Virus record (IMG/VR): IMGVR_UViG_3300028549_003773
Length of the DNA stretch: 64,000 nucleotides
Source: a virus
Taxonomy: Duplodnaviria > Heunggongvirae > Uroviricota > Caudoviricetes
Direction: 5' to 3' (one strand)
In this document: positions 3,958 to 63,293 of the stretch, piece by piece
Layout of the letters: the number at the start of each line of letters is the position of its first letter
How positions within the stretch are numbered: position 1 is the first letter of the stretch
The notes under the pieces: generated by a model
What the model saw: the letters and a program-made list of their open reading frames with translations, nothing else
The model's database searches: none
What the model was told of the DNA's origin: nothing
Made by a program: the position numbers and the translations under genes

Positions 3958-5370
3958 ATGAAACAGTTTATTGCCGTAACAGAAACCCTGGTGACGGGAT
4001 TGGAAGTTGTGACCCCACATTTGGCGTGGCTCCTGCGCTGCGCTATCATGGAACATGCAGGGAATGATAACGTGAATGTCATTTCATTCCACAACAAAAT
4101 ACCGAAGAAAGTTTTCGGTATGGCATACCCTGCGGTCAGAGGTATTGCCATCAACTTAGAAGAGCATGTGTATGCTGCTCTTGATAAGTGCATGAAAGAC
4201 GAAAACCGTAATGTGTCCTTAAGAGCATTACTATTGCACGAGCTTCTGGATACGGCTGTGCACGAAGCTGACCATCTCAAAAGTGCCGCAGAAACAGGCG
4301 ATTGGGATAGCACAGAGTTAAACGAAGAGAGAGCAAAGGCCGAAGCAAAGAGGAAGTCTTGGAAAGCTGCAAAGGAATGGGAAGTGGATTTAACCAGCTT
4401 CGGACCATACTTAGAAGCTGAGTTGGAAACCTTCATGACGGCTCTTAAAGAAGATGCCAAGACAAAAACTGACATGTGGAGAGACTTACAAATCTACATG
4501 TGGGATAAAAAATTGGGATACTACGACCCAAGTACAGGTGTAGAACTGGGCATACCTCAGACATTCGAAGCTCTGGCAAAAGATGAAGAGCCTTGGATGA
4601 AAGCGCCTGCAAAATTCATTTCTCAGCTCGGACCTGAAGTATCTGCAAGGCCAGTACCTCCTGCACCAGTTCAGACACCAGTTGTGGCTCCACCACCAGT
4701 ACCTGAAGAGGTTATTGCTCCTGTAGTAGAAGAAGCTTATCAGGATGCTGATAGTTTTATGAACTATTCAGATAATCCGTTTGATATCAAGGAGTATATG
4801 CCTCCTGCGCCAGTGGAAGCTGTTTCAAACCCACCTGAATTACCAGCACAAGTGGATGGGGAGTTCATGACATCAAGCAAAATCCTTGAAGTAGCTGAAA
4901 AAGTATTCAGGACTTTGTTCTGGCATGTGCAGACAAAATGTGAATTCACCACAGACGGTGGATATAACAATTCTGCAGCTGTACTTGAACCAGTGCGCAT
5001 TGACCACATCGAAGGCGCATTAAAGCTGTTCACTCATATGTGTACCTATGACCAAGTAGGTAAAGTATATGAAAACAATCAGCCGACGACGCATGGAATC
5101 AGAGGCATACTAACCAAAGAAGGTTTGCCATCTTACAAACTGTTCATGCGTATGAATGGAACACTGCATTACAGAACACTGCTTCCAGTCAATAACAATA
5201 AGGTAAAAGACGGTGCCTATACGAAATGGGCACAGGAAGCCAGAAATGGTGTTCGCAGAATGTTTATCTGTGAGGAAGATAAGGGAAAGGGTATTAAGGC
5301 ACATATAACCTTACCTGCTGGTCTACCCCTCGGCCAAGAAAAATTCGAAGTCTGGGGTACGAAGAAATGA
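3958..5370 (+). CDS. hypothetical protein with HExxH-like motif and Pro-rich linker
   Basis: 470-aa ORF; AVHEADHL (HExxH) near residue 100; PVPPAPVQTPVVAPPPVPEEVIAPV proline-rich spacer; otherwise unrecognised. Confidence 0.6.
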   Translation: MKQFIAVTETLVTGLEVVTPHLAWLLRCAIMEHAGNDNVNVISFHNKIPKKVFGMAYPAVRGIAINLEEHVYAALDKCMKDENRNVSLRALLLHELLDTAVHEADHLKSAAETGDWDSTELNEERAKAEAKRKSWKAAKEWEVDLTSFGPYLEAELETFMTALKEDAKTKTDMWRDLQIYMWDKKLGYYDPSTGVELGIPQTFEALAKDEEPWMKAPAKFISQLGPEVSARPVPPAPVQTPVVAPPPVPEEVIAPVVEEAYQDADSFMNYSDNPFDIKEYMPPAPVEAVSNPPELPAQVDGEFMTSSKILEVAEKVFRTLFWHVQTKCEFTTDGGYNNSAAVLEPVRIDHIEGALKLFTHMCTYDQVGKVYENNQPTTHGIRGILTKEGLPSYKLFMRMNGTLHYRTLLPVNNNKVKDGAYTKWAQEARNGVRRMFICEEDKGKGIKAHITLPAGLPLGQEKFEVWGTKK

Positions 5371-5750: not shown

Positions 5751-6686
5751 ATGAGCTCGATTGGAAAATTTGACGCGTCGGTTATGTGTGGTAGAGTGAA
5801 TAAAGTCAAAAACGCAGTAGCCGGTTTTGAGCATGCCGGTGTGTATTATCCTGGGTTCACGAAGCCGGACGGAAATGTCGTCCAAGCTCGATGGGAAGGC
5901 GTCATCTTCATTAACAATCTGCCTTTCACCGGCAAAGACGGAGTGAAGAAAGAGTCCAAGCCGCTGGCTATCAAAGTCACTGCCTGGAACAGCGCCAATT
6001 CAATACCAGGACACGGAATTGCTGACATCTGCGCCAAGTCGCTTTCACCGGGAAAAGAAGTCAGTTGTAAACTCACTGCTTCGTCCTACGAAAAACGCAT
6101 CTACGTGGACGGCATACCGCAAGTTGACCACAAGGGAAATCCCTTGTTCGACAAAAGCGCGGTGTCTTTCACCATGGACGGTCTGCCAATCTTTGGTAAT
6201 GACGCAGACGCGATAATCATGAATGAAATAAACGCTTTCCGCACCAACGGGATAGCTGTGACCTTCGGTGCACGTCCAATATTTTGGAACGTGATTGGTC
6301 ATGCTGACAATCTTGCTTGGCAGAAAATCAAAACTGACCGCAGAGATGCCATGTATGTACCTGGCCAAGCAATGTACGGTTACGCAAAAGTAATAGTCAA
6401 CAGCAATGCGGTACCTGCAGCGAACGCAAATGCAGCCTTGTTGCAGCAAATGGCAGCGATGCAAGCGCAACTTGCCGCTTTGAATCAAACTCCTGCAGCG
6501 CAGCCCACTCCGGTTGCTCCTCCTGTTGCACCAAATCCGACTACTCTCGGTATGGACCCGGTCATGCTTGCTCAGATGATGGAGATGATGAAAACCTTTA
6601 ACCAAACTCCGGTCGTTCCGCAAGCACCGGCTGCTGGCGCAACAACTACAGCTGCCGCCGGACTGTTGAACAACGTTCCGATCTAA
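5751..6686 (+). CDS. hypothetical protein with Q/A/P-rich low-complexity C-terminal tail
   Basis: 311-aa ORF with RBS ttaggagaaaacgt before the ATG; C-terminus LLQQMAAMQAQLAALNQTPAAQPTPVAPPVAP; possible OB-fold-like N-terminal region, not certain. Confidence 0.6.
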   Translation: MSSIGKFDASVMCGRVNKVKNAVAGFEHAGVYYPGFTKPDGNVVQARWEGVIFINNLPFTGKDGVKKESKPLAIKVTAWNSANSIPGHGIADICAKSLSPGKEVSCKLTASSYEKRIYVDGIPQVDHKGNPLFDKSAVSFTMDGLPIFGNDADAIIMNEINAFRTNGIAVTFGARPIFWNVIGHADNLAWQKIKTDRRDAMYVPGQAMYGYAKVIVNSNAVPAANANAALLQQMAAMQAQLAALNQTPAAQPTPVAPPVAPNPTTLGMDPVMLAQMMEMMKTFNQTPVVPQAPAAGATTTAAAGLLNNVPI

Positions 6687-7034
6687 GCTACATACACAGC
6701 CGAGCTGTTTAGCCTGTATGTAGAACAGAGTACCGTATCATCCATTATGGGTGGTACGGTACTTCTTTCTTTTTCAAATGGCTTCGCAGGGTAGGACAAC
6801 TGATGTTGCTGGCTATAGGCCTGGTACAGTTTTTTTTTACTCATGCATTAAATGGAGGGATACATGTCGTTAATCAGGGAATGCATTTCATATCACCGAC
6901 TTTTGGGCCTGGCTGCGCTAATTCAGTTACGGGTAATTTTGGGGTTTAGGAGAGGGATCCGCCGCTGAAATTGTCTCCAGACCGGCGATTAATTCATATC
7001 CAGAGATATTTACAGGTGAGTCTTTTGGGGGTGG

Positions 7035-7079
7035 TGTATAGATTAGTACTACTAATAAATATTAAACTAACCTATACAC
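7035..7079. terminator. 13-bp inverted repeat between convergent genes (bidirectional terminator candidate) at the GC-rich/AT-rich boundary
   Basis: gtgtatagattag ...21 nt... ctaacctatacac with one mismatch; lies between the + block ending at 6686 and the - gene ending at 7083. Confidence 0.45.
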
Positions 7080-7082
7080 GTT

Positions 7083-7745
7083 TTAATTTGTTATTTTTTC
7101 TGCTTCAATAATTTCCTTATCCCATGATGGAGGTGGGGTGGTGTTCTTATAAGTTTCTCTTACAACAAAAAATATTTTTAATAAATCTTCATTTAGAAGT
7201 CCATCTTTTTTTAAAGCGAGACATTGAAATTGATTGCCTATTTTTTTTATAAAATTATAAACTTTTTCTCTGGATATAGATTTAATTAAAATCTCATCTG
7301 AAGGTAAAGCAGATTCTTTTTGAATAAGCAAAGTTTCTAATTTAGATATTTTTAACATCAATTCTTCACTATCTTTCATGGATAAATTAACAATTTCATC
7401 TACTATTTTATTATGTTCTTCTATAGTAATATATTTAGTAGTATCTATAATAGTACCATTAGCTACCATTGGTACATCTAATGGTACTAACTTTTTTTGG
7501 GTACATGTACCCACTTTTTTAGTAGAATCAGACTGGGTACATGTACCCACTTTTTGTGCTCTTTTATATGATTGTCTCAATGTGTTGGCTTGTACAGTAG
7601 CACCATCATTAGTCTTGTTAAAATCTTCTGCTACTTTATCACAAGCTTTTCTAATTGACATACCATCTACTACTAATTTGGTAACAGCATCAAGAGCAGA
7701 TTCACCACAAATGTCTACATTAATTTTTACTTTACATTCACTCAT
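7083..7745 (-). CDS. HTH transcriptional regulator carrying in-frame copies of its own palindromic operator
   Basis: only minus-strand gene in the window; start moved to the ATG at 7745 (MSECKVKINV), preceded by AGGAGGT; region DAVTKLVVDGMSIRKACDKVAEDF looks HTH-like; KVGTCTQ x2 is encoded by palindrome copies at 7499 and 7535. Confidence 0.6.
   Translation of the reverse strand: MSECKVKINVDICGESALDAVTKLVVDGMSIRKACDKVAEDFNKTNDGATVQANTLRQSYKRAQKVGTCTQSDSTKKVGTCTQKKLVPLDVPMVANGTIIDTTKYITIEEHNKIVDEIVNLSMKDSEELMLKISKLETLLIQKESALPSDEILIKSISREKVYNFIKKIGNQFQCLALKKDGLLNEDLLKIFFVVRETYKNTTPPPSWDKEIIEAEKITN
7499..7548. repeat. two copies of the 14-bp perfect palindrome GGGTACATGTACCC (each followed by ACTTTT) inside the regulator coding sequence
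   Basis: exact palindromes at 7499-7512 and 7535-7548. Confidence 0.9.
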
Positions 7746-7768
7746 ATTACCTCCTATTAAAAAATACT

Positions 7769-7816
7769 GGGTACATGTACCCACTTTTATATATTGTAGT
7801 TGCTACATGTAGCAAC
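7769..7816. promoter_or_regulatory. operator-like palindromes in the divergent promoter region: GGGTACATGTACCC and GTTGCTACATGTAGCAAC
   Basis: perfect palindromes at 7769-7782 (25 bp upstream of the regulator ATG) and 7799-7816, between the - regulator and the + gene at 7875. Confidence 0.7.
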
Positions 7817-7874
7817 TTTTATAATATGTATTATACCACATTTAAACTGAAAGTCAACAAAAAAGGAGAAAAAA

Positions 7875-8099
7875 ATGTTCAATGCAATAACAGAAATAGT
7901 ACTAGTAATAATATGTACATCTTTCTTAATTTATAATTTTATAGGCTATTTTAAACTCGAACATAAACATAGGCTTTTTGAATTGACAATGCTGCTAACA
8001 ATAGCTGTACCTTGTGTACTTATTATACTGTACTCAGTGTATTATGTGATTTATTACATGTTCGAAATATTTAATATAAAAATAGTCATAGGATCTTAG
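7875..8099 (+). CDS. small membrane protein
   Basis: 74 aa with two hydrophobic helices; RBS aaaaggagaaaaaa before the ATG. Confidence 0.45.
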   Translation: MFNAITEIVLVIICTSFLIYNFIGYFKLEHKHRLFELTMLLTIAVPCVLIILYSVYYVIYYMFEIFNIKIVIGS

Positions 8100-8429
8100 A
8101 TGAAAACTAACAGTAATGATGAAATTTATAGAAGTGCATTAGATATATTTAAAGAAGTATACCTACCTTCATTTAAAAAAACTACATTAGAAAAAGAAAA
8201 AATCTTATTAGTACACCATCAAAGGCATGTAGAAACTTTTGCTTTTTTTGCAGTATTTAATGTGTTTTTTATCATAATTTTGGCTCTTGATAATGAAGAT
8301 TATCTATATTCAATACTGGTTGCTATGTTTTTCGCTTTATTCAGCCTGAAACATAACCTTTTAGCTGGACAGTACGAAAAGAGTATAGCTGAAAAGAAAG
8401 CTAAATTGCTTGATAGTCTTTATAGATAA
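8100..8429 (+). CDS. small membrane protein
   Basis: 109 aa with a central hydrophobic segment; start abuts the previous stop. Confidence 0.45.
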   Translation: MKTNSNDEIYRSALDIFKEVYLPSFKKTTLEKEKILLVHHQRHVETFAFFAVFNVFFIIILALDNEDYLYSILVAMFFALFSLKHNLLAGQYEKSIAEKKAKLLDSLYR

Positions 8430-8789
8430 CTATATACAGAACAAAAACAAACAAACTGTATCATAGTACTACTATTTTTATAACAAAAATTAAAAATCGC
8501 GCTATAAAATTAACATTTCTATAACAAAAATAAATTATTTTGATAAAGGAAATATATGATAGAAACAACATTACCAGGACTAGTACTAATGTTCTTAGTA
8601 GTATTCTGTATGTATATGGCCATAATGAATTTCATTATCTTTAAATTATTAGATAATCATCCAGATTCAAAAAAACCAAGAAGAAAATTAAATATAAAGA
8701 ATATGAAGGAAGATGGGCAATAGTTATTATAAGAATTGTACTACAGTACTATGGTTGGTGAATTGTACTACTATATTATTACTACTAAG

Positions 8790-8839
8790 GTTGGTACATG
8801 TACCAACTTTTAGGTATTGTACTGGGTACATGTAGCAAC
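8790..8839. promoter_or_regulatory. second operator cluster: GTTGGTACATGTACCAAC and hybrid GGGTACATGTAGCAAC
   Basis: 18-bp perfect palindrome at 8790-8807 and a hybrid of the two half-site types at 8824-8839, each followed by CTTTT; in a 700-bp gene-poor region. Confidence 0.7.
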
Positions 8840-8956
8840 TTTTAAAGTGTGGTACTTTATATTTTTTTGTTTGATTTTTTTATTGACAAAAAAGTGTGAC
8901 TATTATGCACCCATATATCGTAATTACATATTTTTTAGTAGTAATAATATAGTAGT

Positions 8957-9116
8957 ATAGTACAACAATTATAGTAGAAAAGCAGTACAACAATTATAGT
9001 AGAAAAGCAGTACAACAATTATAGTAGAAAAGCAGTACAACAATTATAGTAGAAAAGCAGTACAACAATTATAGTAGAAAAGCAGTACAACAATTATGGT
9101 AGAAAAGCAGTACAAA
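8957..9116. repeat. tandem direct repeats, 25-bp unit AGCAGTACAACAATTATAGTAGAAA x ~6 (iteron-like)
   Basis: exact head-to-tail copies read directly; last copy has one substitution (attatGgtag); array ends 28 bp before the RBS of the ORF at 9145. Confidence 0.9.
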
Positions 9117-9144
9117 AGAAAAAAATAAAAAGAGGAGTGATGCT

Positions 9145-9549
9145 ATGTTCACTACTAGTAAGTTATGTTCTATCTTTAACATTAAATTATGTAAGTTAAG
9201 GATGTGGTTGAATAATGACTACGTTAGGTATTCTGTTGGATCTCCTGGGCAAGGTATGAAGGGGTATTTTGATTATAAAGAACTTCTCATAGCCGCGCTT
9301 TTTATTTATTTAATAGATGAACTGGGTATGTGTAGAGATAATGCCAAAGTTATCACAGGGGATTTGCATTATTACCCGCGAGAATTTTTTGTAGTAGATA
9401 GTACTATATATTATAATAAAGAAGTAGGTATATGGAGTAACAAAACTGCTGTTCATATACCAAAAGAAAATAAAATTGTACTTACTATACCTTTTTATAT
9501 TATAATAAATAAGTACTTAAATGACTATAAGGAGCAATACTATGTCTGA
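9145..9549 (+). CDS. hypothetical protein
   Basis: 134-aa ORF with RBS aagaggagtgatgct before the ATG. Confidence 0.5.
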   Translation: MFTTSKLCSIFNIKLCKLRMWLNNDYVRYSVGSPGQGMKGYFDYKELLIAALFIYLIDELGMCRDNAKVITGDLHYYPREFFVVDSTIYYNKEVGIWSNKTAVHIPKENKIVLTIPFYIIINKYLNDYKEQYYV

Positions 9550-11390
9550 CAAAAGGGAAGTAGATAAATTAGAAGACAACATTAAGTACAAAGCTAAGAT
9601 GGAGATTTCATACTTTTGTAAAAAAGGAGCTCTACTTACTGGTAAATTTATTAAAAAAAATATACCTTTTGATGTATCTCACAGGCAAGGAATAGATGCT
9701 TTTTTCAAGAAGATCGTCAACTGCAAAAAATAAATAATAATAACAACATAGGAGCACAACAATGTCAATAGAAGCAATTATAAAGTTTAAAAAGCAAATT
9801 AGCAAGGTATTGCATGAAGCATCTACTAGCCTATCATACAACGGTTGTAATGATATACCAGATTCTTTTTGGGAGGGACTTACAGAAAAAGATAAATGTT
9901 TTCTTATTAATGAAGCTGTTATGGAAGGCTTAATAGATAAAGATTCTGGTACTTGGATTGCTGATTCTACTGTTGCTGAATTATTTTCTAAATGGTTTAA
10001 AGAGTTAGAGAGTGAATCTGATTCTGTTGAAAATTGGTTAAAACATTTTGATTATTAACTTTTAGCCTGCGCAAATAAAATATAAGGAGAATTATTATGC
10101 CTTTCGCAGATATTGCAATAGGAATATTGATTATATTTTGGTCACTGGGCATGCCTATGCTCATTTACTTGGATACAGACATTAGGGCAGTTATAAAAAA
10201 AATGAGTAGCACTGATCATTTGGCTATGTTTGGTGTTTATCTAATAGTTCCGATCATTTGGTCATGCGTGATATTTATTAAGTAGTAATACTATTAGCTT
10301 ATAACTATTAAATAATTAATTATGAGAGTATAATGACAACTTTTATATGTGTATTATTATTGTTTTTTCTTTTGAACATACCTTTGTCAGCAGCATTATT
10401 ACAGTACTGTAAGTATACCACTAATACTTTCATTAAGTTTATTTTTGTATTATTTTTTATAGGTATTCAATATTTAGCTTTTACAGTTTTTTCTGAAGCT
10501 TATTTAAAATATGTTCATTAACACTTTTCCAGCCAGCACAAATAAAATTAGTACAAAAGGAGCATGCATATGAACACACGTTCTGATACATATCTTAATG
10601 CTTGTGAAATTAAAAAGAGGTTTGGTGTTGCTGTTATACGTAAATGTTTATGTACTTCTATTAGACTTAATGATAGTTATTGGATTAAAGTTTATTCTAT
10701 TGCTTTAAATATTAGATAACATTCTGGTCGTTATTCCTCGCCCGCGCAAAAATTATAAGGAGAACTATTATGCTTCTACAAACTAAATACAACATAGGTG
10801 AAACTATAAAGTTTCATCCGTTTGGAAAAATGGGCCTTACAAAAACATATTGATCAGTTAGGTGATTTTTTAACCAGAGAAGAAGCTATGAAAATTGCTA
10901 TCACCGCCGGGCAAAAAGTTGATATAGAACGAGGTTGTGGTGGATTATCACACATGTTATTCAGTGAAGGACTTTATTAAAATAATACTTGAGAGGTGAA
11001 ATATGCTAATTTCTACAGCTACAAAAAATGAGCACACTAGAGGTAAGTACCCATGTTTAATGATAACTACTGATGGTTTAATAGTATTATTCTCAGACAA
11101 GGGAAAAGGTACAGTAGTGCATACAGAATCGAATACAAATTATATTTTAGGTACCTATGGTTCATATTGGTCCATGGAAGCATTTAAACCATATAGTGGA
11201 AGAGTAACTATAGAATAAATAGTAATTAATTAGTAGTAAATTACCATTAATTAGTAGTAGTAATATAAACCAGTTGTAAAGTACCATAATTCTGCATCAA
11301 AAATACTGTTGTTACACATAGTTACATACTTGTTACATAACTGTAAAAAATTGCATAGTAATAAACAAATATCTTAAAAAGGAATTTACA

Positions 11391-12062
11391 ATGAGTGAAA
11401 TTGATTTTTGCAATCGGCCTAGAAAAAGAAATATTGAGACATATAATGCTTCTTTAGTAACTTCAACTGGTGGTTGGTTTGGCTTGACTGCAAACAATGA
11501 TGAATGGCATTATGATACATACAAAAGAATTCTTAGAAAAGATTCACCTTTTGTAATAGTAGATAAAGATCCAGTAATAGTTAAAGGCATTAATGAACGT
11601 GCTAAAATAAGTCAGACAGATATTACAACACATTGTGGAGATCTTTTTGAAGTATTAAGATCATTAGAACGACCGGAAGTTAGAGTACCATTATTTACTT
11701 ATGGACATTTTGATTTTTGTTCAGCTGCATCATCCATGCAACATAATGCTAAATTAGAGCAACATATTTGGTGGCTCGCGCAATGGAATGACCTTAAAGA
11801 TACATTCTTCTTTGATATGACATTTTGTACGAGAAGGGATTTGTACAGAGGTTATGAAACCATTATGGACAAAACAATACCTCAAGCTTTTGGATCTTGT
11901 GGGTGGGATGTGTATAACCCAAAAACACCATATGCGATAAATGGTGGTATAAACCCACTTAAATTAACACAAGACCACGTATCTTTTATACGTAGATATG
12001 CAGACGGTAGTCCAATGGTAAATGCAATGTATAAAGTTGTAAGGAAATATAGCAATAAATAA
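11391..12062 (+). CDS. hypothetical protein
   Basis: 223-aa ORF with RBS aaaaggaatttaca before the ATG; no motif recognised. Confidence 0.55.
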   Translation: MSEIDFCNRPRKRNIETYNASLVTSTGGWFGLTANNDEWHYDTYKRILRKDSPFVIVDKDPVIVKGINERAKISQTDITTHCGDLFEVLRSLERPEVRVPLFTYGHFDFCSAASSMQHNAKLEQHIWWLAQWNDLKDTFFFDMTFCTRRDLYRGYETIMDKTIPQAFGSCGWDVYNPKTPYAINGGINPLKLTQDHVSFIRRYADGSPMVNAMYKVVRKYSNK

Positions 12063-20616: not shown

Positions 20617-21276
20617 ATGAAAAATATTATAAAAATAAGAGCTTTTGTTGCTATATGTGTAATTTTTGTATTATCGCTGGCTATGCTAAATACAGCAAAT
20701 GCTACAAATATCACAGTAGATTGGGATAAAGTTACAAATGTAACAACAACAAGTAAAGGTACATTAGGTACAACGGAGTTTGAATTAACAGTTGACTCTT
20801 CTGGAGTTTCTGTATATGGATACTGTATAGATCCATCACAAAGTATTAACAAAGGTAATTATGATTTTACTTTATCGTTATTGTCCGACCAAGGCGCAAA
20901 AGCTCCTCTATATTATAAAGCTGCTTGGCTATTGGATTCTTACGCCCCGGCTGGGAATGATGTGAGTAATAAAAAGGAAAAAAGCGCTGCAATACAAGGT
21001 GTACTCTGGACATTGTTAAATAACCCAGGGTATGCTTTGACAAATACAGGGTTAATAGGAAGCTATTTTAGCACTTATTGGGCAGCTGTGTCAGCAGTTA
21101 CTTTGAATTCATCAACAATTAATTATCTTAATACTCATTTTCTTGTTGCAAGAAACAGTAAAATACAAGATCTACTTGTATCTGATCCTAACCCAGTGCC
21201 TGAGCCAGCAACAATGCTTCTATTTGGTACCGGTATTTGTTTGTTATCGAGAATAAGAAGAAAAAATAGGAGTTAA
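20617..21276 (+). CDS. PEP-CTERM sorting-domain secreted protein
   Basis: N-terminal signal peptide; C-terminus PVPEPATMLLFGTGICLLSRIRRKNRS = PEP + TM helix + Arg-rich tail. Confidence 0.7.
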   Translation: MKNIIKIRAFVAICVIFVLSLAMLNTANATNITVDWDKVTNVTTTSKGTLGTTEFELTVDSSGVSVYGYCIDPSQSINKGNYDFTLSLLSDQGAKAPLYYKAAWLLDSYAPAGNDVSNKKEKSAAIQGVLWTLLNNPGYALTNTGLIGSYFSTYWAAVSAVTLNSSTINYLNTHFLVARNSKIQDLLVSDPNPVPEPATMLLFGTGICLLSRIRRKNRS

Positions 21277-21281
21277 ATAAT

Positions 21282-22067
21282 ATGCGATGGTTAAGTATTA
21301 TACTATTACTATTGTTATCTTTAGTATTTACTTTTGTAATTACTAAAGATAATAATGATGGTCTTCTATCAATAAGTGAACAGTCTACTGAAATTTCTGA
21401 TTTAAACATTAATGATTCACCTATAGATGTAGAACAGCTTGAAAGTATAGATAATAGTACAAGTAGTTATAACAATCGTTGGGTTGGGTTGTGTCCAAAA
21501 GATAGTATAAAATCAATTTACGATTTCAGGCAAACTGTAGAAAAAGACCCAACATTACAAAATCATTTTCAAGATTTCAAATGGGAAGAAGCGAAAATTA
21601 ATATTTTAAATAGTACAACTTACGCAAAAGTATCCCATAGATCTGGCTCTATAATAAAAGAAACAAAGAAAAGTATAACTTTACCTAAAGGAGATAAAAT
21701 TATAACTGATGGTAATAGAACAGTAAGATTTTTCTGTTGTAATGATGTTATTATACCAAAAGCTACATTGCCAGCTCCACCAAAGAAAATCAACAAGCCT
21801 ATGATAGCTGTGGAAATTCCAGAAAATAGCCTTGATGTAGTAAACGTAAATGCATATAATGACCAACCCTCCCTTAAAACATACTACAATTATCAACCAG
21901 AATATGTTTACAAAAGTCCAAGTAGTTTTATCGGTGGTAGTTCCTCTTCAGGGTTTTATCCTAAATTTTCACAGCCAACTGAGCCAACAGCAACACCAGA
22001 ACCATCAACATGGATGCTACTAGGAAGTGGTGCTCTATTGCTAAGATTTTTAAAGAAAAAATCCTAA
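21282..22067 (+). CDS. PEP-CTERM-like secreted protein
   Basis: N-terminal hydrophobic segment; C-terminus TATPEPSTWMLLGSGALLLRFLKKKS. Confidence 0.6.
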   Translation: MRWLSIILLLLLSLVFTFVITKDNNDGLLSISEQSTEISDLNINDSPIDVEQLESIDNSTSSYNNRWVGLCPKDSIKSIYDFRQTVEKDPTLQNHFQDFKWEEAKINILNSTTYAKVSHRSGSIIKETKKSITLPKGDKIITDGNRTVRFFCCNDVIIPKATLPAPPKKINKPMIAVEIPENSLDVVNVNAYNDQPSLKTYYNYQPEYVYKSPSSFIGGSSSSGFYPKFSQPTEPTATPEPSTWMLLGSGALLLRFLKKKS

Positions 22068-45073: not shown

Positions 45074-48000
45074 ATGCTCAATGCACTAGATATGGTGATT
45101 GGAAATTTCGTTAGTCAATTCAATTCTAGAGTTTTAACAAGAGCAAGTGCTCAAACTTTTTCTGCAGTTTTAGACGTAGTAAATTCAGAAACTGAAGTAA
45201 TTTTTAAAATGAAACGTGATGAAACCCAGCACGTGATATGCATACCAAAACCCTACGTTAGAGATAACGTAGTTTTGGTATCTATCAATGATATTGAAAG
45301 ATCAGTATCAAAGTATTATTGGAAACTTCACAATAGAGTAATGAATTATTGTGATGTTATATATGAAGTACTTTTTGGATTTCCAGTGCATATATTGCCA
45401 GAAAGTATGTTAAAAAGCAATACTTCTGTTATGCAACAATTAAGATACGCCTATGAAAATAATAAGTTAGCTGTAACTACTAGGAGCATTCAGAAGAAAA
45501 TAAATCATATAGTAAATAATCTTCCTATGCATGAAACAAACATGAATTCTTTTATCATGAATCATAGGATAACTATTTTTGATTTAGAATTTGACGTATT
45601 AACAAATCCTGAAGAACAGCATGCTTATCAAGTAAAGAAAAACAAAGAATTTTTTGATACTGGTTGGTCATCTTTAGGCTTGTCTGATGGTTGTTTAGCC
45701 AATAAGAATTATATGTTGGATTATGATTTGAGGAAGCTAACACCATTTGGAAGTAACTTCCATAATCCTCAAAGAAATTTATATTCTACCTTGGGTATGA
45801 AAGGTGATGAAACTCCTCTTGTGCACTCTGAGGAAACTTTTCGCTTAGCCCAAAACGGTTTAACAAGAAAAGGTTGGAATTTATTTACAATATTTGTTGA
45901 TGTACCAGATGTATGGGAAGATCAACTTATGGTAGATATAAGACATTCAAATAAATACATTGAGTATACAAAGAAATGCATGTGCCATGGAAAAGCACTT
46001 GTAAAAGTTGGTGATATATTGTATACTAATGATCCTCTTTATGTAAATAATTCAAAAGAAGTAAAATCCTTTGATGTCCAATGTGACAGTGCAGTAGTAG
46101 AGAAAATAGAGGAAAAAGAAAACAATATAGGTGGTGCACTATTTCCAGTACTTTTGATAACTGTGAAATATAAACGCTATCTTAAAGATGGTACAAAGTT
46201 GACAAATCTCGCGGCTAACAAAGGTGTTATTCGTATGAGAGATTTAGGTTATGCAATTAATCCAGTAACAGGTAAACAACAAAAGATAGACGTGATAGTA
46301 TCAGCTAAAGCAGTACTGAAAAGAAAGAATTATACTCAAGTACTCGAAGCTTTATTGAATAATATCAACGATAACAATGTAGTAGTTATCCCAGAGAATT
46401 TGGTAATAACCGAAGAAGCAATATCCTCAGCATTAGTATCTTCAGGTCATAATGCTGATGGTACTTGGTCTTGTCACACATACTCTGGTGACTTCAGATG
46501 TGTTGCTGGTAATGTATTTTGGGGTGTGACACATGATGCGGATGATACAGTGTGGCGTTCAGGAGCTACACATGTTGAAAATGGTAGAGGTTTAAGAGAA
46601 GCTGGCTTGAAATTTTCTACAATAGAATTTAGAGCGTTGGCTACACGTTTTGGAAGAGATAACGCTTTAGAAAAAGAAATACTATCATACGCCCAAGGAT
46701 ATGCAGATGTAAAAGAATTGCTAAGTATTTTAAATTGTCAACTTGGCAAAAAAGACTTAGCATACACCACCAAGAACATCTTTGATATAGCTCCTCTAAA
46801 TCAAGAAGCTGGTATAATGTTGATGGAAGAAGAGTTAGTTGGTTCTATAGTAGATCCTAATATGGAAGATAATGGTTTCATGTTAAAACTTCCTGTAAAA
46901 TATCAAATAGTCTTAGATAGAAAATCGAACATATTGACATGTGGTTTCCCTGTCAAAGTAGAAGAAAAAGTAGGTAACAAAGCTGTAGGTAAAGTAATAA
47001 TTATTGATTCGTTGTATGTTCCTTATGCGAACCTTAGAAAATGCTGGAAGCATGACATAGGCAAAGTTGGTTTGAATGATATAGGTAACGCATTGAATAC
47101 TATAGTAGTTATGTCACATAGCTATTTGAAAGAAAACAGTAATATAACCTTATCAATGTTGTACTCTGCCATTAGTACTTATTTTTATACAGTATCAAGT
47201 AAATTAAGTACAAAAAATGGTGAGTTAAGTGTACACACTATGGCTGTAAGATACCCACATTCTGTGAAAGGTGTAGCAACTCTTAGTAATACTTTACCAC
47301 GTAATACAGTTAGAATACATAGTGTCATGGCTTCTGAATTAAAATTGGTTGAAGGAGACATAGTACTTGTAGAAAGATTCCCTTGCTTGGGTTTTATGTC
47401 ACTCAGACCCCAAAAAGTTATGATTACTGACGACCCATTGTGTAGATTTTCTATACAAGTAAGTGGAAATAGTTTAGGATCCATGTCTTTGGATTTCGAT
47501 GGTGATGTTATTTATTTGGCAGCTTTCTATTCTGAGGCTTCCAAAAATGCACTCAAGAAAGAGTTAAATACACCTAATGAGCACTGTATAAAATATATAG
47601 AGGCTTTTAATTCAAAAATGGGTGTACCAAGACTTATGGAAATGTCATTACAGGATTACAAAATAGCACCTTTTGATAAGCTGACTTCAGATACACATGC
47701 TGAAATAGTTAGTAAACTTACAGGTGTAAAAAGTAATACTGGTCCAGTTGTTGCTTTGGCTTACAATCTTTTACGTATTATGGAAAATTCGGAATTAGCC
47801 GGAAATCAGGAAATAGAAAGTGGTATAGAAGTTTTTATAGATACTGTAGCTAACTCTGTTTTTAAGCAAAAACATGGTGTTAAGTCTTTACATAAGATCG
47901 TTATGGATGCAGTGTGTTCAGCTGACTTAGAAACTTTAGTTAGTGAAGGATTCGACCAAAAAATATCAGAAATAATATGTAGTAAGATACGCGAAAAAGC

Positions 48001-48337
48001 TGCTCAAATAGGAATTAAGGATGTAAAACAGTATCATAAATTAATTACAGAAGAAGGGGGTAGTAACGTAATTAATAGATTAGTACGTGAACAAAACATA
48101 CTGTACTTTACAAGTAGAGCTAATTTAGATAGTTGTAAGATTGTTAAAAATGTGGCAGATTTTGCAGTAGTGGATATACCAAGCAGTATCTTCACAAAAA
48201 TAATGAGTCTGAATTCAGCATTTGAGAAATCAGACTTGGCGGATTTAAATTCTTTGAAAAATCCTGAAGCATTTCATTATTATACCGGAGCTTTGAAAGA
48301 ACTAAATAGAATAATAAACACAGAAAAAAGTATTTAA
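45074..48337 (+). CDS. divergent multisubunit-type RNA polymerase catalytic (beta-prime-like) subunit
   Basis: ERFPCLGFMSLRPQKVMITDDPLCRFSIQVSGNSLGSMSLDFDGDVIYL aligns by eye with the beta-prime segment [43 protein letters not shown] (R-x-P-x-L ... P-x-x-V/L-x-I ... DFDGD); size 1087 aa. Confidence 0.65.
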   Translation: MLNALDMVIGNFVSQFNSRVLTRASAQTFSAVLDVVNSETEVIFKMKRDETQHVICIPKPYVRDNVVLVSINDIERSVSKYYWKLHNRVMNYCDVIYEVLFGFPVHILPESMLKSNTSVMQQLRYAYENNKLAVTTRSIQKKINHIVNNLPMHETNMNSFIMNHRITIFDLEFDVLTNPEEQHAYQVKKNKEFFDTGWSSLGLSDGCLANKNYMLDYDLRKLTPFGSNFHNPQRNLYSTLGMKGDETPLVHSEETFRLAQNGLTRKGWNLFTIFVDVPDVWEDQLMVDIRHSNKYIEYTKKCMCHGKALVKVGDILYTNDPLYVNNSKEVKSFDVQCDSAVVEKIEEKENNIGGALFPVLLITVKYKRYLKDGTKLTNLAANKGVIRMRDLGYAINPVTGKQQKIDVIVSAKAVLKRKNYTQVLEALLNNINDNNVVVIPENLVITEEAISSALVSSGHNADGTWSCHTYSGDFRCVAGNVFWGVTHDADDTVWRSGATHVENGRGLREAGLKFSTIEFRALATRFGRDNALEKEILSYAQGYADVKELLSILNCQLGKKDLAYTTKNIFDIAPLNQEAGIMLMEEELVGSIVDPNMEDNGFMLKLPVKYQIVLDRKSNILTCGFPVKVEEKVGNKAVGKVIIIDSLYVPYANLRKCWKHDIGKVGLNDIGNALNTIVVMSHSYLKENSNITLSMLYSAISTYFYTVSSKLSTKNGELSVHTMAVRYPHSVKGVATLSNTLPRNTVRIHSVMASELKLVEGDIVLVERFPCLGFMSLRPQKVMITDDPLCRFSIQVSGNSLGSMSLDFDGDVIYLAAFYSEASKNALKKELNTPNEHCIKYIEAFNSKMGVPRLMEMSLQDYKIAPFDKLTSDTHAEIVSKLTGVKSNTGPVVALAYNLLRIMENSELAGNQEIESGIEVFIDTVANSVFKQKHGVKSLHKIVMDAVCSADLETLVSEGFDQKISEIICSKIREKAAQIGIKDVKQYHKLITEEGGSNVINRLVREQNILYFTSRANLDSCKIVKNVADFAVVDIPSSIFTKIMSLNSAFEKSDLADLNSLKNPEAFHYYTGALKELNRIINTEKSI

Positions 48338-49216: not shown

Positions 49217-50602
49217 ATGATTATAAAAGTAAGTAACACATTAACTGTAGATATAAAGGATGATCTACTACTGCAACTTGTAGTAGAAGATTTAACATAT
49301 GATAATCCTCTTTATAAAGAAGCTAAAAAAAGTGGTAGGTCAACAAGAGGACTAACACAGGTACTTAAAAATTTTACCTATGTTAATGGTAGTTACTTAC
49401 TACCTCGTGGATATTTTGAAAGACTTTATATTTTATCAAAAGAACTTGGAATACATGTAGAAATACAAGACGAAAGGTCAATAAGACCATTTGAATATGC
49501 ATATAAACATGATATAACTTTACGGGAATATCAATCAAAAGCTTTAAGAGGGTTAGTAAGTCATTCCGAAGGTGTTTTGTCAGCGCCAGCAGGTAGTGGC
49601 AAAACAATCATAGGTATCGCTGCTATACTTACATGTGGTCAAAAAAGCCTATGGATAACTCATACGAAACAACTTTTGTTTCAATTTGTCGATAGGCTTA
49701 AATCTTTAGTAAATATACCAGAATCAGACATTGGTTTAATATATAACGGAGATTGGGATACAGAAAAACCCATAACAGCCGCATTAGTTCAAACATTAAA
49801 AACAGATAATAAAAAACTTGCCAGTATATCTAATAATTATGGCACTATTATAGCAGATGAAGTTCACCATCAACCAAGTTCAACTTTTACAGAAGTTGTA
49901 ACTATGTTAAATCCATACTACTTGTATGGATTAACAGCAACTCCATTTAGAAGAGATGGTTTAGAAACACTGCTTTTTCAAAATATAGGACCTATTAGAC
50001 ATACAATAGATAGATCCGAAACATCTAGTAATATTATTGTACCAACAGTAATTAAAAGAATGTTAAAAACTTCTAACTTACCAGAAGAATTAACTTATCA
50101 AACCTTGTTAGCATTATTGACAAAAGATGATTACCGAAACAGTATAATATGTGCAGATGTAGTTAGAGAAGCAAAACTTGGTAATATATGCATAGTATTG
50201 ACGGAAAGAGTGTCACATGCAGAAATATTGTATAAGAAAATATTAAAACAATGGGACAAAGTTGGTATTATACATGGTAAACATTCTGACAAGCTAAGAG
50301 AAAAGACACTTACTAGTTTAAATAATGGGGAAATAACTGTATTAACAGCAACTACTCAACTACTCGGCGAAGGTTTTGATCATCCATCGTTAAATAGATT
50401 ATTTTTAGCTCAGCCTATAAGAAATCCAGCCAAGTGTGAACAATTAGTTGGAAGAGTTCAAAGGACAAGCCCTGGTAAAGTTGATGCTTTAATATATGAT
50501 TACATAGATGACCATGGATTAACTAAACACCAGTTTCAAAATTACGGAACAGGGAGTAGTAGATATAATGTTTATAAAAAACTAGGTTGTAATATAAAAT
50601 AA
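49217..50602 (+). CDS. superfamily-2 DEAD/DEAH-box helicase
   Basis: Walker A APAGSGKTIIGI; motif II IIADEVHH; C-terminal helicase domain TATTQLLGEGFD and QLVGRVQR (motif VI). Confidence 0.8.
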   Translation: MIIKVSNTLTVDIKDDLLLQLVVEDLTYDNPLYKEAKKSGRSTRGLTQVLKNFTYVNGSYLLPRGYFERLYILSKELGIHVEIQDERSIRPFEYAYKHDITLREYQSKALRGLVSHSEGVLSAPAGSGKTIIGIAAILTCGQKSLWITHTKQLLFQFVDRLKSLVNIPESDIGLIYNGDWDTEKPITAALVQTLKTDNKKLASISNNYGTIIADEVHHQPSSTFTEVVTMLNPYYLYGLTATPFRRDGLETLLFQNIGPIRHTIDRSETSSNIIVPTVIKRMLKTSNLPEELTYQTLLALLTKDDYRNSIICADVVREAKLGNICIVLTERVSHAEILYKKILKQWDKVGIIHGKHSDKLREKTLTSLNNGEITVLTATTQLLGEGFDHPSLNRLFLAQPIRNPAKCEQLVGRVQRTSPGKVDALIYDYIDDHGLTKHQFQNYGTGSSRYNVYKKLGCNIK

Positions 50603-62673: not shown

Positions 62674-63153
62674 ATGAACGTACCAGTAGCGCAACAACAA
62701 CAAGAAGAAGAGAACCTGCGAAATTTTAACGATGACATTAAGTACATTTACTTTGGAAGAGCTGAAAAAAATAATAATCACAAGGGTGTAGTTTGTATCG
62801 GCTACAAAGTAGATAAAACAGGCACAGTACTGCGCATGGGTGTAGCATTTTGCAGCCCCGAAGACGTGTTCGCCAAAGAAGAAAGCAGGCGACGTGTGCT
62901 GAAACGTATTGCAAACAATGCTTATGAAGAGTTGGTAAAAGATCCATCCGAAATTTCCGAAGACAACCCGTTGTTTTCCAATATGCGTTACGAAGATGTT
63001 GTAAAGCTTATCGCAATTTCGTTTAATTCCTCTATTCCGGCAGAGTGGAACACCTCCTATAAGTCATACCTGAACAATTCCAAAGAAGTTTATCCTACAT
63101 TTGCTCGTATTAAACTACCTTGGTGGGTAGCAACTCTTGCAATTAGTGCTTGA
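62674..63153 (+). CDS. hypothetical protein
   Basis: 159 aa; RBS gagaggaaaaaaatt before the ATG. Confidence 0.5.
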   Translation: MNVPVAQQQQEEENLRNFNDDIKYIYFGRAEKNNNHKGVVCIGYKVDKTGTVLRMGVAFCSPEDVFAKEESRRRVLKRIANNAYEELVKDPSEISEDNPLFSNMRYEDVVKLIAISFNSSIPAEWNTSYKSYLNNSKEVYPTFARIKLPWWVATLAISA

Positions 63154-63210
63154 CAATAAATATGAAGTGTAGTACTATATAGTATACAATATGTGTAGTA
63201 CTACAACCAA

Positions 63211-63293
63211 GCAAGAGTGGTGGAAATGGCAATACACGAAGGTCTTAGAAGCCTTTGCTTAAATGATTGAGGGTTCGATTCCCTCCTCTTGTA
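63211..63293 (+). tRNA. tRNA-like gene (possible type-II tRNA, anticodon read as TAG/Leu but uncertain)
   Basis: canonical T-arm GAGGG-TTCGATT-CCCTC; 7-bp acceptor GCAAGAG/CTCTTGT with discriminator A; 3-bp D-stem GTG/CAC with a GG-containing loop; anticodon stem AAGGT/GCCTT with loop CTTAGAA; 13-nt variable region that does not fold cleanly. Confidence 0.45.

Follow-up and report, generated by a model that had tools for sequence, protein, structure and literature searches.

The DNA analysed here is a stretch of 64,000 nucleotides from a virus (Caudoviricetes; IMG/VR record IMGVR_UViG_3300028549_003773), referred to below as the window. At positions 8959-9115 it carries a tandem array of 25-bp direct repeats which, judged from its sequence and from the arrays of related phages, can be regarded with good confidence as an iteron-like row of protein-binding sites. 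The array is the longer right arm of a larger single-copy element, and part of a replication origin is its most likely role, which we propose tentatively. Together with its surroundings, the array is the clearest cis-acting landmark of the 64 kb, and its core provides a defined 18-19-bp probe for finding the binding protein, and the locus marks precisely where an origin, a first promoter or a genome end might be sought. The basis of the analysis is 64 kb of one genome together with fragments of relatives.

The array and the element that contains it

Tandem Repeats Finder reported a single strong array in the window, running head to tail over 8959-9115 with a period of 25, 6.3 copies, 99% matches and a score of 307. 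When AGTACAACAATTATAGTAGAAAAGC was searched at up to three mismatches, six matches were found against 0.00 expected in 100 shuffles, none of them elsewhere in the 64 kb. Five copies are exact, with linkers that are identical too, and the sixth differs by A>G at 9098. An initial annotation made from the sequence alone had described six 25-bp tandem repeats with one variant copy, and this description is confirmed, its unit being a few-base rotation of ours; the distance of 28 bp that it gave to the open reading frame (ORF) at 9145 is actually a gap of 29 nt (array end at 9115). The same repeat occurs in an independent JGI metagenome contig, L001, which is 99.56% identical over 5.2 kb and has its end inside the array; the array is therefore no artefact of one assembly. 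Copy numbers taken from short-read assemblies are lower bounds, and the true number in the window could exceed 6.3. The array breaks short-read assemblies of these phages, which makes it a practical warning for their assembly.

The array and the spacer that follows it are:

8959-9115, plus strand: tandem array of AGTACAACAATTATAGTAGAAAAGC, 6.3 x 25 bp, each unit consisting of an 18-19-bp conserved core and a 6-7-bp linker
9116-9144, plus strand: A-rich spacer of 29 nt in which GAGGAG (9132-9137) is the ribosome-binding site of the ORF at 9145-9549

The array was rejected as a coding region and as a structured RNA. No ORF of at least 40 aa in the window's ORF list crosses it, no RNA structure was found in it (fold z = +1.2), and an Rfam scan gave no match there. 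It lies in the longest non-coding stretch of the window, 8724-9144 (421 bp). The initial annotation had regarded 8430-9144 as nearly non-coding apart from a possible 55-aa peptide, which is right for this stretch and less so for the 55-aa ORF at 8556-8723, which has a ribosome-binding site and is called as a gene in L001.

Relatives were gathered through a minus-strand gene to the left of the array, for which 18 homologs were found in a large protein collection, and their contigs were compared in the orientation of the window:

7083-7745, minus strand: putative DNA-binding regulator of 220 aa, a candidate binder, with a strong near-consensus sigma-70-type promoter at 7857-7830

The relatives come from wastewater and other metagenome or virome contigs only, and most of the contigs break at the repeats. 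Four further lineages of the same uncultured phage group, at a regulator identity of 43-59%, were found to have an array whose position and orientation match those in the window:

L004/L008 (regulator 57% identical): GTACAATTTTTATGGTAGTAAC, at least five exact 22-bp copies plus degenerate ones
L013 (regulator 43% identical): GTACAATAATCATGGTAGAAAAGC, 24-bp units; the contig stops in the array
L016, a 55-kb IMG/VR contig (regulator 59% identical): intact array of ~8 diverged 22-25-bp units, for example AGTACAATAGTGGTGGTAGAATTC and AGTAGCAAAGTTATGGTAGATTC
L010 (regulator 52% identical): 31-bp variant in which the AGTAG and AGTAC words recur

The arrays share the bipartite core AGTACAA-N3-TTATGGTAG, with free linkers and periods of 22-25 bp, and at least 5-8 units are present in every lineage with a readable site. 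Among 15 distinct units, G2, T3, A4, A7, T14 and A18 are invariant and A1, C5, T11, G16, T17 and G19 nearly so; positions 8-10 and the linker are free. In 180 kb of window and relatives' loci, the pattern GTACAA-N3-TYRTR-GTAG is confined to these arrays and always has one orientation. The 14-bp distance inside the unit is fixed, the linker between units measures 3-7 bp, and the copy number drifts. With its fixed internal distance and variable linker, the unit looks like a protein-binding site. The copies of L016 have diverged (64-77% matches) yet keep the same core positions, indicating selection on each copy and speaking against purely neutral slippage. The iteron-like behaviour proposed in the initial annotation is thus borne out: position, orientation and the 18-19-bp bipartite core are conserved in diverged relatives, and linker and copy number drift.

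The array belongs to an element whose order is conserved in every lineage. A hairpin with a T-run after the last small membrane-protein gene is followed by a short repeat with reverse-oriented words, the left arm of an inverted repeat (IR), CTATATTATTACTACTAA, an AT-rich tract of 45-60 bp, the block AGTGTG-N8-G(C/G)AC(A/C)C, GTAATTACAT, the right IR arm TTAGTAGTAATAATATAG and the array, after which L016, L010 and L004 carry a GC-rich element, TTCCTCGCCCGCGC. In the window, the following features were recognised:

8733-8779, minus strand: two unit-like copies in reverse orientation (GTAGTACAATTC on the minus strand), 27 bp apart, from repeat analysis and word polarity
8747-8788, plus strand: left arm of the long inverted repeat (IR-L, ...CTATATTATTACTACTAA), with equivalent arms in relatives
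8790-8840, plus strand: two terminator-like palindromes, GTTGGTACATGTACCAAC at 8790-8807 and GGGTACATGTAGCAAC at ~8822-8840, each followed by TTTT
8853-8892, no strand assigned: AT-rich, T-rich tract, 84% AT over 45 bp from 8853, containing TTGACA at 8883-8888
8893-8912, plus strand: conserved block AGTGTG-N8-GCACCC (AGTGTG-N8-GCACMC across relatives), an imperfect dyad, AGTGTG...CACAC in three relatives
8920-8929, plus strand: conserved GTAATTACAT, holding the 8-bp palindrome GTAATTAC, from the alignment of relatives
8935-8976, plus strand: right arm of the long inverted repeat (IR-R, TTAGTAGTAATAATATAGTAGTATAGTAC...), which enters the first array unit; the 42-nt arms are 86% complementary
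10723-10752, plus strand: GC-rich single-copy element TTCTGGTCGTTATTCCTCGCCCGCGC, conserved at the nucleotide level in relatives

The IR arms, 24-62 nt in length, bracket the central block in every relative, and as single-stranded DNA the region 8720-8990 of the window folds far better than shuffled sequences (z = -7.2). The centre is AT-rich in all lineages, the AT-rich tract of the window lying 60 bp to the left of the array, and the conserved block occurs once per genome (7 loci). The AGTAS words of the window face opposite ways on the two sides of this block: forward words number 1 on the left and 14 on the right, and reverse words 7 on the left and 1 on the right. In L016, L010 and L004 the GC-rich element comes straight after the array and before the first ribosome-binding site; in the window it lies 1.6 kb to the right of the array, with six small ORFs between. 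It is found 10-15 nt upstream of a ribosome-binding site (L016 ~8475-8445, L010 ~7935-7905, L004 ~7065-7035, L003 ~95-125). A sigma-54 promoter was considered for it and rejected by inspection, its GG and GC being 12 nt apart and not 10.

The palindromes at 8790-8840 are more loosely associated with the array. They had been placed immediately upstream of it, in an iteron-plus-palindrome architecture; the gap is in fact ~115 bp and is filled by conserved motifs. The AT-rich tract and the inverted repeats nearby agree with such an architecture, whereas the link to the palindromes is loose, a gene separating them from the array in L016, and the palindromes themselves are terminator-like. Their stems vary between lineages by compensated substitutions (GGTAC/GTACC, GGGAC/GTCCC and GGGGAC/GTCCCC), with a T-run after each. 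They probably terminate the small-gene unit that lies upstream, may also be protein sites, and are best read as no obligatory partner of the iterons. Their candidacy as operators for the N-terminal domain of the regulator is weakened by L017, in which this domain is swapped and the palindromes are the same.

Possible roles of the element

A replication origin is the best single guess from the anatomy of the locus. It is favoured because initiator sites in mirror orientation on either side of an unwinding region are the layout known from classic origins, because the element is unique in the genome, because the locus lies at the sole transcriptional divergence, as do T4 oriE, oriF and oriG, and because the conserved block has no promoter. 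An SSB-like gene 2.3 kb to the left and the helicase and clamp loader encoded in the window support this reading, and the array shows the at least three direct repeats of ~17-25 bp with a conserved core that are expected of an iteron origin. In such an origin, one sequence-specific DNA-binding protein would occupy the bipartite sites (AGTACAA, three free bases, TTATGGTAG) head to tail on each arm. Mirror-oriented on the two arms, the protein would form a nucleoprotein complex focused on the centre and would open the AT-rich tract, and the opened centre could then let the T4-type replisome of the phage load, of which the helicase and clamp loader are those encoded in the window. The binding of a protein, the identity of the binder and replication initiation as the controlled process are all what we infer.

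Several results weigh against an origin. No initiator (Rep-like) gene conserved beside the array was found among the neighbours, and no DnaA box (TTWTNCACA) is present on either strand of 6500-9600; on these two counts the origin proposed in the initial annotation is weakened, the anatomy of the locus being what keeps it in place as the best guess. The GC-skew analysis suggested there as a check revealed no sign change at the locus: the skew is positive on both sides and flattens over the single minus-strand gene, in a test that is weak because skew follows one-directional transcription and only 64 kb were covered. The periods of 22, 24 and 25 bp are not tied to whole helical turns. The AT-rich tract, at 84% AT, is matched or beaten by 1.9% of all 45-bp windows, the genome itself being AT-rich, and the p-values for the polarity of the AGTAS words (2e-4 in the window, 9e-4 in L016 and 4e-3 in L010, with L013 similar) are generous, since copies in tandem do not count as independent. 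In T4-type phages replication can start without iterons, and even the T4 oriE iterons have a role that is still undefined (PMC3016281). The assessment, moreover, covers 64 kb of the genome only. Two features that define an iteron origin were looked for and not found; the element, which behaves like an iteron array, is not filed in that family.

Control of early transcription is the main, if doubtful, alternative, in which the array and the IR arms would be operators for a phage regulator, possibly the 220-aa protein of 7083-7745; once bound, this regulator would coat the DNA from the upstream terminators to the first early gene, or loop it, acting as a roadblock or switch for the rightward small early genes. 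The array does follow the terminator-like hairpins (8790-8840) and stand before the first ribosome-binding site of a plus-strand gene run of 50 kb, all lineages have it in one orientation with respect to transcription, and the genes to its right are small and poorly conserved, as is usual for early genes. In addition, the putative helix-turn-helix regulator with its near-consensus sigma-70 promoter adjoins the region 1.2 kb from the array in all relatives; high conservation is seen in its N-terminal domain, and likewise in the array core, but not in the palindromes, which vary. The DNA-binding fold of this regulator is, however, weakly supported: its model has a predicted local distance difference test score (pLDDT) of 66, and its best PDB match, to a 52-residue helix-turn-helix of MuA at E = 0.56, is weak and was not used as evidence. 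Nor does the block have a recognisable promoter, since TTGACA (8883-8888) is not conserved, being missing in L014 and L016, and no -10 hexamer stands at 16-18 bp; and six to nine tandem sites of 22-25 bp would be unusually long for an operator. The array itself was rejected as a row of sigma-70 promoters: no plus-strand promoter-like site was scored in 8724-9144, the TATAGT of the unit becomes TATGGT, CATGGT or TGTGGT in relatives, and the unit is no recurrent promoter word in the window, its words not being enriched upstream of other window genes. It is rather unlikely that the whole 420-bp element, with its mirror-oriented AGTAS sites, cruciform-capable IR, dyad block and the GC-rich element that comes next in relatives, is an undescribed type of unique phage 'start site'. 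In one version this would be a bidirectional origin of a phage with a T4-type replisome; in another it would be the single entry point for first contact with the genome by the unusual putative fused beta/beta'-like RNA polymerase (45074-48337) or by an injection-control protein. A genome-end signal is distinctly unlikely. The locus would here mark where the virion DNA physically ends, or would serve in packaging or injection in the manner of the repeat-rich untranslated regions that T5 (iss) and T7 have close to their ends, and would divide last-entering genes from early genes. A single-copy, conserved and complex non-coding region with the anatomy of T5 Repeat Region 3 and its nine DRD direct repeats would suit this role, as would a site between the GC-richer block with its strong terminator (6728-6764) and early-type genes. 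Many relatives' contigs stop at the locus; these ends are, however, explained by the repeats, contigs also break at another repeat cluster (L006, L007 and L009), and three assemblies (the window, L010 and L016) read straight through. The contig end of L017 (1-45) is an Illumina adapter (AGATCGGAAGAG...) fused inside the AGTGTG block, as a DNA end might leave it, but this is a single contig at 6x coverage and probably reflects read-through of one read. The locus lacks the paired DnaA boxes that have been proposed for T5 iss, and no terminase family match lies near it, which also counts against a pac/cos site; the sole 'terminase' match is a weak secondary one of the helicase at 49217-50602.

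The remaining readings have little probability. That one IR arm was amplified by replication slippage, leaving extra copies without a role, is very unlikely: the five copies that are identical including the linker look as they would if slippage were recent, the array extends from the IR-R arm, and period and copy number vary by lineage, but at least 5-8 units are kept in every lineage with a readable site and the diverged copies of L016 retain the core positions. We consider it highly improbable that the array acts at the RNA level, as a 5' leader that binds an RNA-binding protein or boosts translation of the first early gene. Its place directly upstream of a ribosome-binding site, its A-rich and unstructured character and its fixed orientation would allow this, whereas the reverse-oriented unit-like copies and the IR arm across the block argue that duplex DNA is what is recognised, the search for a promoter upstream of the array found none, and in relatives another conserved element stands between array and ribosome-binding site. 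The least probable reading is a plasmid prophage with the array as its plasmid-type partition centromere (parC-, sopC- or tubC-like); the initial annotation had also named partition sites, and this proposal is not supported. Homogeneous tandem direct repeats are, as is generally known, a feature of F sopC, and a distant regulator homolog, P0019, has a swapped N-terminal domain with a weak match to a Borrelia partition protein. No partition NTPase (ParA, ParM or TubZ) match was found among the 10 nearest ORFs or the ~50 larger ORFs scanned, no relative of the regulator occurs in 185,579 bacterial and archaeal genomes, and neither an integrase nor a gene for plasmid replication was seen; in its gene content the phage is of the large lytic type. 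Two further candidates were rejected: a CRISPR array, as the units abut head to tail without spacers, and an attP-like recombination site with arm-like repeats around a dyad core, as no integrase is present among the ORFs scanned and six to nine arm sites would be atypical.

Genome and neighbouring genes

The window is part of a large, undescribed phage with a lytic-type gene content. Its GC content is ~30%, at 41-47% up to ~7 kb and then falling sharply to ~27-31%; the GC-richer block closes with a terminator with a 17-bp stem at 6728-6764. Except for the regulator gene (7083-7745), all sizeable genes are on the plus strand; the locus lies at the only transcriptional divergence in the window. 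The neighbours to the left of the array encode small hydrophobic membrane proteins, and those to the right are small, poorly conserved and different between relatives. The product of the ORF at 9145 has no family or PDB sequence match. It was rejected as a conserved cognate binder, since its only homolog, 94% identical and located in L003, lies downstream of the GC-rich element, and the 145 bp that this contig has upstream of it contain no array; the gene beside the array is therefore no conserved partner of it.

Within and just upstream of the regulator gene, the palindrome GGTACATGTACC recurs at 7498-7513, 7534-7549, 7768-7783 and 7798-7817. Because it is read in two frames in homologs (VGTCTQ vs KLVHVPT), what is conserved is an element of the DNA or RNA and not the peptide. 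Each copy forms a hairpin with a T-run on the plus strand, and terminator-like sites in 6500-9600 number 8 against 0.9 expected; they would block antisense transcription into the regulator gene.

Besides the helicase and clamp loader, the window encodes RtcB, a CCA-adding enzyme, several ATP-grasp and amidotransferase proteins and two PEP-CTERM proteins. A 311-aa protein at 5751-6686, 2.3 kb to the left of the array, resembles single-stranded DNA-binding proteins (SSB) with an oligonucleotide-binding (OB) fold and has a long Ala/Pro/Gln-rich tail. A distant homolog is named SSB, two homologs have sub-threshold Pfam SSB matches, and the top 50 fold matches are all SSB or PriB, obtained with a low-confidence model (pLDDT 47). 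The 1087-aa protein at 45074-48337 has sub-threshold matches to Rpb2 domain 6 (residues 329-464) and Rpb1 domain 2 (residues 735-825). These matches, which are weak, fall in the double-psi barrel domains of Rpb2 and Rpb1, suggesting a fused beta/beta'-like RNA polymerase. Two adjacent proteins, at 20617-21276 and 21282-22067, end in a PEP-CTERM sorting motif, one of them with a weak thioester-domain match, which hints at a Gram-negative host with an exosortase system. A 470-aa protein at 3958-5370, present in all relatives, has a metalloprotease-like HEADH (HExxH) motif and proline-rich linkers, with no significant family match.

Further repeats were noted at a few other places. A tRNA-Leu gene at 63150-63293 has a sigma-70-like promoter upstream (TTGACA, 17 bp, TACTAT) together with GTAGTACTA words like those around the array; the tRNA-Leu, at 63211, is the only result of the Rfam and tRNA scans. 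A small intergenic tandem repeat, TAAATAACAATTAATTAGTAG x 2.1 with TAGTAGTA words, lies at 11216-11259, upstream of the ORF at 11391. In relatives, a second repeat cluster is located ~10 kb to the left of the regulator and consists of GTACTTAAGAATTGTG x ~5 followed by ATAGTACTATCACT x 3 (L004 20156-20313; L010 20272-20301). The 76-kb contig of L010 stops at the equivalent of this second cluster, in AATAGT x 5, and the equivalent position falls outside the window.

Searches of public collections indicated how isolated this phage group is. Neither 7000-10500 nor 8400-9600 has a DNA match among 50,697 GenBank phage records, in near and distant modes. At the protein level these records gave no match for the polymerase-like protein (tblastn) or the regulator and at best 28% identity for the helicase, so that the group has no relative among them even through its 1087-aa polymerase-like gene. 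A profile of the regulator found no relative in 185,579 species-representative genomes of bacteria and archaea (GTDB). IMG/VR scans with the exact unit and with a degenerate two-unit pattern returned 0 matches, as did two scans of metagenome contigs for the array, although the JGI contig L001 has the array, so the collection is incomplete here.

Comparison with known systems

Iteron origins such as R6K gamma, P1 incC/oriR, F and RK2 have several ~17-22-bp direct repeats with a conserved core beside an AT-rich region. Their initiator gene is adjacent, DnaA boxes are usual, the spacing is near two helical turns and the spacers are not homogenised. The window shares with them the direct repeats with a conserved core, here next to a tract whose AT content is not exceptional for this genome; it has no sequence in common with them and differs in having no adjacent initiator, no DnaA box, a period of 22-25 bp and linkers that are identical within the genome. 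At E. coli oriC, with its DnaA arrays, and at archaeal ORB origins, mirror-oriented initiator sites flank an unwinding element. Here, too, asymmetric sites face opposite ways across an AT-rich centre, but they are not homologous to these sites, the window yielded no initiator of the Orc/Cdc6 or DnaA type, and the arms are very unequal, with 2-7 words on the left and 13-14 on the right. The partition centromeres F sopC, R1 parC and tubC are homogeneous tandem repeats bound cooperatively by a small DNA-binding protein. The array is likewise a homogeneous series of tandem direct repeats, whereas the centromeres adjoin a partition NTPase operon in a plasmid or plasmid prophage, and none was detected here.

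Repeat Region 3 of phage T5 measures 1.2 kb, lies in the terminal repeat and contains paired DnaA boxes and nine DRD copies (bioRxiv 10.1101/866236). Like the element described here, it is untranslated and combines palindromes with long inverted repeats, held at a fixed spacing, and with a run of direct repeats; it is better conserved than neighbouring ORFs and borders the first-expressed genes. This resemblance is anatomical only: the present element has ~420 bp, no DnaA boxes and no sequence similarity to the T5 region.

We regard the iteron cluster of T4 oriE as the closest analogue in kind. The T4 oriE iterons are 12-nt evenly spaced direct repeats that are conserved in synteny, with no link to origin activity established; oriE, oriF and oriG lie near transcriptional divergence, and R6K has been cited as a plasmid analogy (PMC3016281). 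Repeat length sets the two apart, 12 nt in T4 against 22-25-bp units with an 18-19-bp core here, there is no sequence similarity, and a mirror-oriented left arm and a conserved central block are described for the window element only. Both consist of evenly spaced direct repeats in a non-coding stretch near a transcriptional divergence, belong to a large lytic phage with a T4-type replisome and are syntenic in relatives, and for both a function is proposed because plasmid origins offer an analogy. Phage control regions with iteron-like repeats are a familiar kind of feature; the phage lineage in which the present one occurs is itself undescribed.

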